Made by a program: the position numbers and the translations under genes
In this document: in pieces, positions 2,608-4,627 of the stretch
How positions within the stretch are numbered: the first letter of the stretch is position 1
Layout of the letters: every line of letters starts with the position of its first letter
Origin: a virus
Lineage: Duplodnaviria > Heunggongvirae > Uroviricota > Caudoviricetes
Reading direction: 5' to 3' (one strand)
Length of the DNA stretch: 4,627 nucleotides
IMG/VR virus record: IMGVR_UViG_2711768014_000008
The notes under the pieces: model-generated
What the model was told of the DNA's origin: nothing
Databases searched by the model: none
The model's input: the letters and a program-made list of their open reading frames with translations, nothing else

Positions 2608-3294
2608 ATGACCCCAATAAACATATTTATGACAGTTGCTGATTTCAAACGGCCCAAATTGGAGCTCCCAAACGGGGCAAACAAACTACTACTGCACTCT
2701 TGCTGTGCTCCATGTTCCGGTGAGGTGATGGAGGCGCTTCAGGCCTCGGGAATCGACTACACCATCTTTTTCTACAACCCGAACATTCATCCTCAGAAAG
2801 AGTATTTAATTCGTAAGGATGAGAATATTCGCTTTGCTGAACAACACGGCGTGCCGTTTATTGATGCTGATTACGACACAGACAACTGGTTTGAACGAGC
2901 CAAAGGAATGGAATGGGAGCCCGAACGAGGGATCCGTTGCACCATGTGTTTTGACATGCGTTTTGAGCGGACAGCGCTGTACGCCGCTGAAAATGGTTTC
3001 AGTGTGATCAGCAGTTCACTGGGCATTTCACGCTGGAAAAATATGCAGCAGGTTAACGACTGTGGGCGGCGAGCCGTCGCGCATTATCCGGGCATGGTGT
3101 ACTGGGATTATAACTGGCGCAAGCAGGGCGGCTCGTCCCGTATGATTGAAATCAGCAAGCGCGAAAAATTCTATCAGCAGGAATATTGTGGCTGTGTGTA
3201 TTCTCTGCGCGATACCAATCTACACCGCAAATCTCAGGGACGCCCTCTTATCAAAATTGGTCAACTCCACTACGGTAAAGAAGAGAAGGAGTGA
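2608..3294 (+). CDS. queH: QueH/DUF208-like protein (putative epoxyqueuosine reductase-type Fe-S enzyme)
   Basis: 228-aa ORF, stop TGA 3292-3294. Contains [11 protein letters not shown] (CCAPC encoded at 2701-2715), [14 protein letters not shown] and EYCGC, the cysteine and NPN pattern I associate with the DUF208/QueH family. No Shine-Dalgarno before ATG 2608 or the in-frame ATG 2629, so the start is uncertain. Confidence 0.8.
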
Positions 3295-3443
3295 TTTTAT
3301 GGGGCACCTTTCTGATTGATTTCATATTGGCGAGGTAAGTAGAATGACTGCGGGTGCTTGAGGCTATCTGCTTCAGGCATGAACACCAAAAGGCAGATAG
3401 AGAAAAGCCCCAGTTAACATTACGCGTCCGGCAAGACGCTTAA

Positions 3444-3693
3444 NNNNNNNNNNNNNNNNNNNNNNNNNNNNNNNNNNNNNNNNNNNNNNNNNNNNNNNNN
3501 NNNNNNNNNNNNNNNNNNNNNNNNNNNNNNNNNNNNNNNNNNNNNNNNNNNNNNNNNNNNNNNNNNNNNNNNNNNNNNNNNNNNNNNNNNNNNNNNNNNN
3601 NNNNNNNNNNNNNNNNNNNNNNNNNNNNNNNNNNNNNNNNNNNNNNNNNNNNNNNNNNNNNNNNNNNNNNNNNNNNNNNNNNNNNNNNNNNNN
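3444..3693. other. Run of 250 N (assembly gap or masked sequence)
   Basis: Read directly. Confidence 1.
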
Positions 3694-3717
3694 CATCCTC
3701 AACGCACCCGCACTTAA

Positions 3718-3760
3718 CCCGCCCATCGCTGTGATCTCTCAGCGTTTCGGCGGGTTTTTT
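3718..3760 (+). terminator. Rho-independent terminator (GC stem with internal hairpin, followed by T6)
   Basis: CCCGCC (3718-3723) pairs with GGCGGG (3749-3754); nested CGCTG (3727-3731) pairs with CAGCG (3740-3744); TTTTTT at 3755-3760. No matching U-tract on the minus strand. Confidence 0.7.
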
Positions 3761-3780
3761 GTTGTTTATTTCCGGTGAAT

Positions 3781-3808
3781 TTGATTCGCGCACCTTCGCA
3801 GATAGAAT
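3781..3808 (+). promoter_or_regulatory. sigma70-like promoter: TTGATT, 16-nt spacer, TAGAAT
   Basis: -35 TTGATT at 3781-3786, 16-nt spacer, -10 TAGAAT at 3803-3808. Predicted start near 3815, about 75 nt upstream of ATG 3890 and directly after the terminator. Confidence 0.5.
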
Positions 3809-3889
3809 CGACTCACTTAAGTAGCGCGCAGGGAGAAGAGGGATGGACCCCGAACAGGGGAGAGCTATTTATCTGGAAGGATTCTGAAG

Positions 3890-4177
3890 ATGAAAATCGA
3901 AGAATTGCGTGAAATTTTTAGTGAAAATGGCCTCTATGCTGTGCGCGTTGAGAATGGAGCGATTGTCAGCCATTGCCGCATTAGATGTTTGCAATCTCAA
4001 CAAAGGAAGAGCGGTGCTGTGTTATTTTATTTTTGTAATGGACTTCTGACGGACGGTTTTATTTTGCGTGAGGACGAATTTGTCACATCATTACGGGTTT
4101 TGAAAGAGATTGGTTTTAAGGCTGGTTTTCTGCTTTTGCTGAAGAATAAACTCATCTACAATCTTGAGCAGGATTGA
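3890..4177 (+). CDS. Hypothetical 95-aa protein; lower-GC (about 40%) moron-like ORF
   Basis: ATG 3890 with GGAAGGA 8 nt upstream; stop TGA 4175-4177. GC counted by hand as 114/288. No family recognised. Confidence 0.6.
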   Translation: MKIEELREIFSENGLYAVRVENGAIVSHCRIRCLQSQQRKSGAVLFYFCNGLLTDGFILREDEFVTSLRVLKEIGFKAGFLLLLKNKLIYNLEQD

Positions 4178-4215
4178 ACTCCTGCTGTGTAACACCGTGC
4201 CACCGGAGAAAGCCG

Positions 4216-4569
4216 ATGGCACATATACAACTGGTCAAACAAACCTCTTCCGGATTACTTCTCCCGGCGACGCCGGAGAGTTGCGATTTTCTGCATCAAA
4301 TCAAAATAGGTGAGTGGATACACGCAGACTTTAAGCGTGTGTGTAACTACGCATTCCACAAGCGTTTTTTCAAACTCCTGCAACTGGGTTTCGATTACTG
4401 GACTCCGGTCGGTGGGGCGATCACGCCTCGCGAACGAAAACTGGTGTCCGGTTTCGTTGATTACCTGTGTGAATCAGTAGGCCGGGAACATACGCCAGCT
4501 CTGAGCGAAGCCGCAGAGCAATTGAGGTGTACTGGCAATAGCGGACACTACCATTTGTTCTTTTTTTAA
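4216..4569 (+). CDS. Hypothetical 117-aa phage protein (possibly a conserved nin-region family; not firmly recognised)
   Basis: ATG 4216 with GGAG 7 nt upstream, preferred over the track's TTG 4174. The stop TAA 4567-4569 is formed at the end of a T7 run (4561-4567), so the C-terminus may be artefactual. Confidence 0.65.
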   Translation: MAHIQLVKQTSSGLLLPATPESCDFLHQIKIGEWIHADFKRVCNYAFHKRFFKLLQLGFDYWTPVGGAITPRERKLVSGFVDYLCESVGREHTPALSEAAEQLRCTGNSGHYHLFFF

Positions 4570-4627
4570 GCAGCCATCTGATGATATTTTTCCCTGAAGG
4601 CTGCCGGGGAGATATTCCCCAGACGAG

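Follow-up and report, generated by a model that had tools for sequence, protein, structure and literature searches.

Prophages of the Rac, Qin and Gifsy type have short repressors that RecA cannot cleave, and their induction depends on small antirepressor proteins. In Gifsy prophages the induction module is found downstream of the replication genes and is not part of the immunity region; terminator-like palindromes precede it, and it comprises a LexA-controlled promoter, dinI and a small antirepressor (GfoA, GftA or GfhA), followed by irsA, as shown by the strain names (Lemire et al. 2011, PMC3121763); FsoA of Fels-1 is an antirepressor under the control of the phage repressor rather than of LexA (PMC3121763). 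In the case of the Qin prophage of Escherichia coli K-12, ectopic expression of the antirepressor Rem lifts a DicA-repressed dicBp-lacZ fusion 165-fold and filaments the cells via Qin DicB and DicF; in a Qin-deleted strain Rem has no effect and the growth inhibition is gone (Ragunathan et al. 2023, PMC10448788). The same authors report that K-12 rem is functional from its native ribosome-binding site, that it is not needed for the derepression of dicBp that occurs spontaneously or upon treatment with urea or heat, and that the signal inducing Rem is unknown (PMC10448788). Here we describe a region (3718-4569) of a stretch of 4,627 nucleotides, referred to as the window, from the tailed-phage record IMGVR_UViG_2711768014_000008. 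An earlier note on this DNA had interpreted the region as a self-contained, moron-like cassette with two small genes, possibly of accessory function. Our analysis indicates, with a probability of roughly 80%, that it is instead the antirepressor (induction) unit of a Rac/Qin-type lambdoid prophage, in a decayed fragment bracketed by two copies of IS600. The unit is one already known, Rem of the Rac/Qin-type prophages of E. coli and Shigella, and the copy in the window is a decayed one.

The first gene of the region (3890-4177, plus strand, like all the features described below from the hok/sok locus to the truncated DUF1367 gene) is identified by BLASTP and PHROGs as a rem homologue encoding a Rem-family antirepressor, in the form of a 95-codon frameshifted allele. 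Its product is 68% identical to K-12 Rem (b1561, Qin) over 80 residues (BLASTP, E = 2e-34) and matches phrog_340 (E = 6e-20). The precomputed Pfam annotation places PF27490 on all 77 homologues; relatives are labelled rem in MN652886 and in PPompW phages, and one phage record carries the label "prophage antirepressor". The protein has no match in local Pfam, NCBIfam or PADLOC. Overall the Rem family is narrow: an exhaustive profile search of 1.84 billion representatives returned 54 matches, mostly fragments, and no bridge to the Gifsy antirepressors. Most records of the exact 95-residue protein come from Shigella sonnei and S. flexneri. An AlphaFold2 model (predicted local distance difference test score, pLDDT, of 71.6) consists of one short helix, an antiparallel sheet of four strands and helices at the C-terminus, and has no informative structural neighbours. 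Because the K-12 member of the family is a demonstrated antirepressor of DicA, we consider gene 1 a regulator of the phage life cycle rather than cargo of benefit to the host.

The gene also has a fixed genomic position. In about 80 related prophages (IMG/VR loci) the same slot is found, with the order hok, rem, then either YdfU or DUF1367-DUF1364, then Q, and a DicA-type repressor is encoded about 5.4 kb upstream in 25 of the 25 loci whose flank reaches that far and gives a match. In the intact relative the repressor, of 135 residues, has 62% identity to DicA. A central segment, CSPTWxLFGDEDK, and the C-terminal helix are conserved in every DicA variant, and these could be what Rem targets in all of them. 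Phage vB_EcoS-666R9 has neither rem nor its leader, while its DUF1367-YbcO-Q block is 96% identical at the nucleotide level; in the region this phage carries a KilA-N gene and a distant repressor of 139 residues (31% identity). Elsewhere rem has internal deletions or is mosaic, as in a 26-codon remnant in E. coli E423 and in forms of 57-58 residues in O45:H2 and Rac-SA53. The rem slot is therefore exchangeable, as expected of lambdoid mosaics, and its occupant here is a phage regulatory gene.

Two observations on other occupants of the slot were made in passing. In E. coli E423 two genes, one for a Doc-family toxin and one for a small partner, are located between hok and the truncated rem (L085, 683-1366), and represent a true insertion. 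Proteins of 57-69 residues (P0067 and P0075; L086, 1649-1822, and L090, 1581-1757) share with rem the leader and with Rem the N-terminal 23 residues, and then continue in an unrelated C-terminal part (…VVYTTLIPDDHVILSIEAF…); proteins of this type are very common in prophages of the enterohaemorrhagic E. coli type (at least 1000 contigs) and may be a second family using the same expression module.

The putative rem promoter consists of a -35 element TTGATT (3781-3786) and a -10 element TAGAAT (3803-3808) separated by 16 nucleotides, with a score of 9/12. By itself, a scan of the window is insufficient to establish this promoter, as it does not rise above chance (2 promoters found against 1.1 expected); it is the comparison across loci that supports the σ70-like promoter proposed earlier at 3781-3808. 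The comparison set comprised 80 related IMG/VR loci, K-12 Qin and phage Rac 442/2; 80 loci gave 33 distinct upstream sequences. TAGAAT is unchanged in all 33 of them, while the DNA upstream of it falls into 7 classes with less than 60% identity between them. Each of the 7 classes nevertheless offers TTG as a -35 with a spacer of 16 or 18 nucleotides (background 0.051, binomial P ~9e-10), and the promoter is also scored by the scanner in loci L004 (10/12) and L013. At the -10 the conservation profile rises from less than 0.3 to more than 0.6; it reaches 0.86-0.94 by 3819-3847 and remains at 0.7-0.95 across the leader and rem, as far as the start codon of the following gene. The invariant -10, the TTG present in all 7 classes and the shape of the profile indicate that the -10 marks the beginning of the conserved module and that selection has made every upstream context supply the rest of the promoter. 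Gene 1 is thus very probably driven by its own promoter, just 3' of a terminator. A LexA box (CTG-N10-CAG) is found in none of the 33 variants between 260 nucleotides upstream and 40 nucleotides downstream of the rem ATG, and a check by eye revealed near the rem promoter no element resembling the DicA operator (TTAG-N6-CTAA, as seen in dicA-dicC intergenic regions).

The predicted 5' leader of rem is about 75 nucleotides long (3815-3889, the start being derived from the position of the -10) and is nearly invariant between about 3819 and 3889, from CTTAAGTAGCGCGC on, with a mean column identity of 90% in an alignment of 17 leaders. It contains an upstream open reading frame (uORF) of 14 codons, MDPEQGRAIYLEGF (3843-3887; ATG at 3843, TGA at 3885-3887), preceded at a distance of 7 nucleotides by its own Shine-Dalgarno (SD) sequence GGAG (3832-3835) and ending 2 nucleotides before the rem ATG at 3890; a CCCC/GGGG hairpin with variable loop occupies 3848-3860, and the SD of rem itself, AAGGA (3877-3881), is located 8 nucleotides before the ATG and kept in 15 of the 17 leaders. 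All the elements that had been pointed out earlier in the leader are therefore present, but the encoded peptide is not conserved. The ATG of the uORF is invariant in 33/33 distinct leaders, and in most of them the frame has 14-15 codons and stops anywhere from 2 nucleotides before to 1 nucleotide into the rem ATG, including TGATG overlaps. In 10 of the 33, on the other hand, its length varies between 3 and 25 codons or it is fused in frame to rem: L006, the L078-type leaders and the K-12 type have a frame of only 3 codons, other leaders one of 8, 12, 22 or 25 codons, and two carry the fusion. In several lineages the SD of the uORF is also weakened (GGAG to GGAT or GGAC). The varying length and frame, the weakened SD and the 3-codon frame of K-12 argue against a conserved leader peptide; translational coupling via the uORF may occur but is unsupported. 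As a side observation, the fusion in L039 and L054 results from a 1-nucleotide insertion in the G-run of the hairpin, and gene callers applied to the fused leaders (P0049) report a Rem of 98-102 residues with a MDPEQGECYLSGRILL extension.

At the level of RNA structure, the CCCC/GGGG hairpin has 98.5% of its cells paired in the 17 leaders despite indels in the loop, with only one compensatory change. A covariation test of this hairpin among the 17 leaders gave no statistical support, but at 90% identity between the sequences such a test cannot be informative. The fold of the leader as a whole is no better than that of shuffled sequences (z = -1.6), and no Rfam family matches it. The leader also holds six GGA triplets in 81 nucleotides, with A[AG]GGAT motifs at 3839-3844, on the ATG of the uORF, and at 3877-3882, on the SD of rem, 38 nucleotides apart, a pattern that resembles that of leaders repressed by CsrA. 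A literature search for a link between CsrA and rem produced nothing relevant, so CsrA control stays an idea.

Downstream of rem, a stem-loop AGCAGGA-TTGAAC-TCCTGCT (4167-4186) precedes the SD of the next gene and is kept whether that gene is DUF1367 or ydfU. Compensatory changes affect 3 of its 7 pairs, and its covariation score of 0.238, against a shuffled mean of 0.146, is reached by only 3 of 500 shuffles. Since it lacks a U-tract the hairpin is not a canonical terminator, and it could be a processing or stabilising element. A terminator scan of the window found no terminator 3' of rem or of the second open reading frame (ORF), and the conserved block extends unbroken as far as the start codon of the gene after rem, whichever this is; the unit thus has an open 3' end, and the simplest reading is that rem is co-transcribed with the nin and Q genes.

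The second ORF (4216-4569) starts with the 5' half (codons 1-103, 4216-4522) of a DUF1367, irsA-like gene of the nin region: it matches PF07105 with E = 9.8e-47 over positions 1-102 of the 198 in the profile. The half gene also matches phrog_319, for which the PHROGs label "NinB/Orf recombination mediator" is unverified. Two runs of N mask the window at 1220-1607 (3' part of a ydaV-like gene) and 3444-3693 (hok coding region), and the masked features were taken from a near-identical unmasked locus, L001. In L001 the full DUF1367 gene encodes 199 residues, and the homology of the window to the intact prophage ends at 4522. From 4523 to 4627 the sequence is an IS600 end with the inverted repeat TGAGGTGTACTGGCAATAGCGGACAC..., for which megablast returns thousands of copies under the annotation IS3-like element IS600. 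IS600 accordingly truncates the DUF1367 gene at 4522/4523, and the ORF is chimeric, with 103 DUF1367 codons joined to 14 codons derived from IS600 and a stop at 4567-4569. Both products are therefore recognisable, contrary to what had been stated, gene 1 as a member of the Rem family and gene 2 as the 5' half of DUF1367.

Nucleotide alignment places a 1-nucleotide deletion in the window's rem at 4126-4129: the window reads GCTGG-TTTTCT (4121-4131), where all relatives read GCTGGNTTTTCT. The resulting -1 frameshift turns the C-terminus ...GFSAFAEE* into ...GFLLLLKNKLIYNLEQD*, so that residues 81-86 are exchanged for an unrelated tail of 15 residues and the conserved AGFSAF with its acidic end is lost. 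Residues 1-80 of a relative (P0003) are identical to those of the window protein, and this relative has the normal SAFAEE end. In the AlphaFold2 model residues 84-95 have pLDDT values below 50. Judging from these alignments, the length of 95 residues is a lesion of an 86-residue gene and not a feature. The two small genes of the earlier description are therefore a frameshifted 86-residue gene and a DUF1367 half cut by IS600. The frameshifted allele is widespread, as its cluster is found on at least 999 contigs, and a similar C-terminal tail (…NKLIYNL…) is present in proteins P0044 and P0045 of the K-12-like Rem lineage.

The terminator that precedes the promoter belongs to a different unit. 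It was confirmed as a strong hairpin followed by U6, at 3716-3760 rather than at 3718-3760 as first proposed, with an RNAfold energy of -22.8 kcal/mol (z = -5.9; none of 200 shuffles equal to it), an outer stem 3716-3723/3749-3756 and an inner stem 3727-3731/3740-3744; because of its long loop a pattern scanner missed it. Alignment with K-12 hokD and Rac 442/2, where the terminator is a simple CCCGC-UUCG-GCGGG, shows that the loop has received a 23-nucleotide insertion, CCATCGCTGTGATCTCTCAGCGT, with a 5-bp stem of its own. Further upstream, the 5' end of the hok mRNA with the sok region (3352-3411) matches positions 1-58 of the Rfam model RF01794 (sok) with 53.9 bits, a match cut short by the N mask; in unmasked L001, where hokD is annotated, the full model is matched with 117 bits against a threshold of 59. 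A segment CCTCAACGCACCC (3697-3709) near the 3' end of the hok mRNA is complementary to its 5' end, GGGTGCTTGAGG (3352-3363), and is kept in K-12 hokD and Rac 442/2; we take it to be the fold-back (fbi) element of hok/sok. The sok match, the fold-back segment and the alignment with K-12 and Rac therefore assign the terminator to the upstream hok/sok unit. As the only terminator is owned by hok/sok and none follows the genes, the region cannot be called self-contained.

These results suggest the following scheme. The strong hok/sok terminator would halt transcription arriving from the early operon and from hok; some 20 nucleotides further on, the σ70 promoter would start a transcript with the conserved leader of about 75 nucleotides, encoding Rem, which is normally of 86 residues and is predicted to fold as a helix plus a four-stranded sheet. 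By homology with K-12 Rem, the protein would inactivate the short, non-cleavable DicA-type repressor and thereby derepress the early promoters of the prophage. As no terminator follows rem, the transcript probably runs on into DUF1367/irsA, DUF1364/YbcO and the DUF1133 Q-type antiterminator. Several points weigh against this scheme. Antirepressor activity is experimental for the K-12 homologue only, this allele and its promoter being assigned by comparison, and direct binding of Rem to DicA is inferred even in K-12. The window itself holds no cognate repressor gene. Types of Rem and types of DicA show no strict pairing across the loci, and their distribution is therefore unusable as evidence of a specific partnership; the missing co-variation fits binding to a conserved part of the repressor as well as a less specific role. 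Rem cannot be aligned by BLASTP to the Gifsy-1 antirepressor, and the hhalign probability for the two is 0.3%. A fair promoter with no recognisable operator leaves the silencing of Rem in the lysogen unexplained. Finally, the frameshift may have inactivated the protein.

The last point can be extended to the idea that the whole unit is dead in this genome, with rem frameshifted, its neighbour truncated and the immunity region gone. This has a sizeable chance of being correct, although we place it short of even: IS600 at both ends of the fragment and a split ydaU-like gene speak for decay, and in other degraded prophages rem is commonly found with deletions, but only the last 6 residues of Rem have been exchanged, which leaves the predicted core of helix plus sheet intact, the frameshifted allele is widespread, a similar tail is found in P0044 and P0045, and antirepressors can act in trans on the repressors of other prophages. 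Some residual activity of the window's Rem may be retained. The accessory reading of the earlier note, in which an independently acquired and transcribed gene pair would confer a host trait such as exclusion, toxicity or defence, fares much worse, and we regard it as very improbable. Phage morons are promoter-gene-terminator insertions between conserved genes, and rem resembles them in having its own promoter just after a terminator, an exchangeable slot that is empty of both rem and leader in vB_EcoS-666R9 and occupied by deletion or mosaic variants elsewhere, and a low GC content: the value of about 40% given for gene 1, below its neighbours, was borne out by measurement (39.6% versus 48.6-54.8%, and about 49% for the fragment). 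The low GC is, however, common to the conserved module and not a local anomaly; rem has no 3' terminator of its own, it would serve the phage's own switch, as the K-12 member of the family regulates the repressor of its own prophage, and its slot is conserved across the phage group. In addition, there is no pair, since what was called gene 2 is a core nin gene in truncated form, and neither protein matches any of the PADLOC defence families. The Rem-family assignment largely refutes the moron-like interpretation. The earlier note had itself named as evidence against it the strict conservation of both genes as nin-region genes with known roles, together with an inactive promoter; the former is largely what we find, while an inactive promoter is contradicted by the comparison across loci.

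Two other alternatives concern how the unit works rather than what it is. The promoter at 3781-3808 could be mainly an entry point for the rem-DUF1367-DUF1364-Q block, with Rem, during lytic development, consolidating the lytic state and bringing about the induction of DicA-type prophages resident in the same cell, instead of serving as the primary trigger. This is compatible with an antirepressor unit, and we consider it unlikely, though several observations speak for it: no terminator separates rem from the next genes, the conserved block is unbroken from the -10 to the next start codon, a strong terminator precedes it, dicBp can be derepressed in K-12 spontaneously, by urea or by heat independently of rem, and FsoA of Fels-1 is a precedent for a phage-controlled antirepressor independent of LexA. 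Against it, a constitutive feed of Q would be lethal to a lysogen, so that some control is needed and none was identified, and the covarying stem-loop right after rem may restrict read-through or represent a 3' end left by processing. The second alternative is that translation of the uORF from ATG 3843 sets rem translation by coupling: ribosomes terminating at TGA 3885-3887 would open a weak hairpin at the start of rem and reinitiate at ATG 3890. The invariant ATG, the proximity of the uORF end to the rem ATG in most leaders, including the TGATG overlaps, the good SD 7 nucleotides upstream, and a predicted fold that pairs 3880-3885 with rem codons 4-6 and partly covers the AUG all agree with it. 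Its likelihood is nonetheless low, because the K-12 type has a uORF of only 3 codons and a native ribosome-binding site that works, other lineages have 8, 12, 22 or 25 codons or a fusion, the SD is weakened in several lineages, the peptide is not conserved, and the leader folds no better than shuffles (z = -1.6) and shows no covariation. Equally speculative is the thought that the invariant -10 and the leader of about 75 nucleotides form an SOS-independent, post-transcriptional trigger for the induction of DicA-type prophages, of the CsrA type or coupled to translation; if this were true, the -10 and the leader, with its uORF of variable length, its retained CCCC/GGGG hairpin and its two A[AG]GGAU motifs, would together be the sensor deciding when Rem is made.

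Returning to the antirepressor unit and its setting, the 4627-base window is a fragment of a decayed Rac/Qin-type lambdoid prophage. IS600 ends are found at both extremities of the window (1 to about 105 and 4523-4627) in the same orientation, and the prophage piece between the two copies is 4.4 kb long. The dicA-dicC immunity region is absent from the fragment, whose left end in the window is IS600. Between IS600 and hok we find a ydaU-like replication gene split in two frames (80-343 and 513-782), which is a single ORF of 262 residues in the intact relative and a further sign of prophage decay, a DnaC/YdaV-like gene (from 789, partly masked), a DUF977 gene (1624-2046), a zinc-ribbon ORF (2104-2460) and a QueH gene (2608-3294; Pfam E = 1.9e-65). 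QueH, an epoxyqueuosine reductase involved in tRNA modification, is thus placed in the early region of the prophage, between the zinc-ribbon ORF and hok and after a gap of 147 nucleotides, and looks more like cargo than does the rem region. An intact copy of the latter, 99.9% identical, is present in E. coli FDAARGOS_944, where the order is DicA-like repressor, Cro/CI, YdaT, YdaU, YdaV, DUF977, a hypothetical protein, QueH, hokD, a 95-residue hypothetical protein (rem), DUF1367, DUF1364, DUF1133 (Q-type), 4 tRNAs and lysis genes. The closest species-representative genomes are E. coli ECMA0423 and Shigella flexneri SFBU1023 (L087, L088), with 99.6-99.7% identity over most of the fragment and only 97% over 105-1219; both have a single IS600, inserted about 60 bp deeper into the DUF1367 gene than that of the window, and the exact junction of the window has no match in species-representative genomes.

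With respect to the description of Rem published in 2023, the present analysis adds that rem has its own promoter, selected across at least 7 unrelated upstream contexts, that a LexA box never occurs on this promoter, and that the conserved unit consists of the -10, a near-invariant leader, the gene and a covarying hairpin. The mapped -10, leader and hairpin are where the control of Rem should be looked for. For annotation, the message is that the terminator is that of hok, gene 1 is a frameshifted rem, and "gene 2" is a DUF1367 gene truncated by IS600.

The relationship of the rem unit to the Gifsy induction modules is one of position. In the record of Gifsy-1 the order is dinI, an ORF of 73 residues and STM2620 (DUF1367), and the sequence contains two terminators, a promoter and the LexA box TACTGTGTTTATATACAGTG. 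The rem unit is likewise separate from the immunity region and lies rightward of the replication genes, with a terminator and a promoter before it and irsA/DUF1367 after it, the DUF1367 proteins being 53% identical (versus STM2620); the repressors on both sides are short, non-cleavable and of the same architecture, with a similarity of 30%. In contrast to the Gifsy modules, the rem unit has no LexA box (33/33 variants) and no dinI. Since the antirepressors themselves show no detectable sequence similarity, the parallel is positional only; the link between Rem and the Gifsy proteins drawn by Ragunathan et al. is a transitive one obtained by PSI-BLAST only (PMC10448788). By analogy, the rem unit would work like a Gifsy module while not being a member of the Gifsy antirepressor family. 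The same logic, a small protein that inactivates a repressor incapable of self-cleavage, is found in FsoA of Fels-1, and in the LexA-controlled proteins Tum of phage 186 and AntC of N15, all of which belong to families different from Rem. Compared with hok/sok loci (RF01794), the terminator of the window is the 3' end of such a locus, and this is a unit separate from rem, as in some relatives other genes intervene between the two (L085, with its Doc-type toxin-antitoxin pair). The closest described system is K-12 Rem. There the -35 and the upstream DNA are unrelated to those of the window, the uORF has 3 codons instead of 14, the next gene is ydfU instead of DUF1367/irsA, and the C-terminus is free of the frameshift seen in the window; the gene nevertheless occupies the same place right after hokD, with the same -10 element, the same leader and the same hairpin after the gene.

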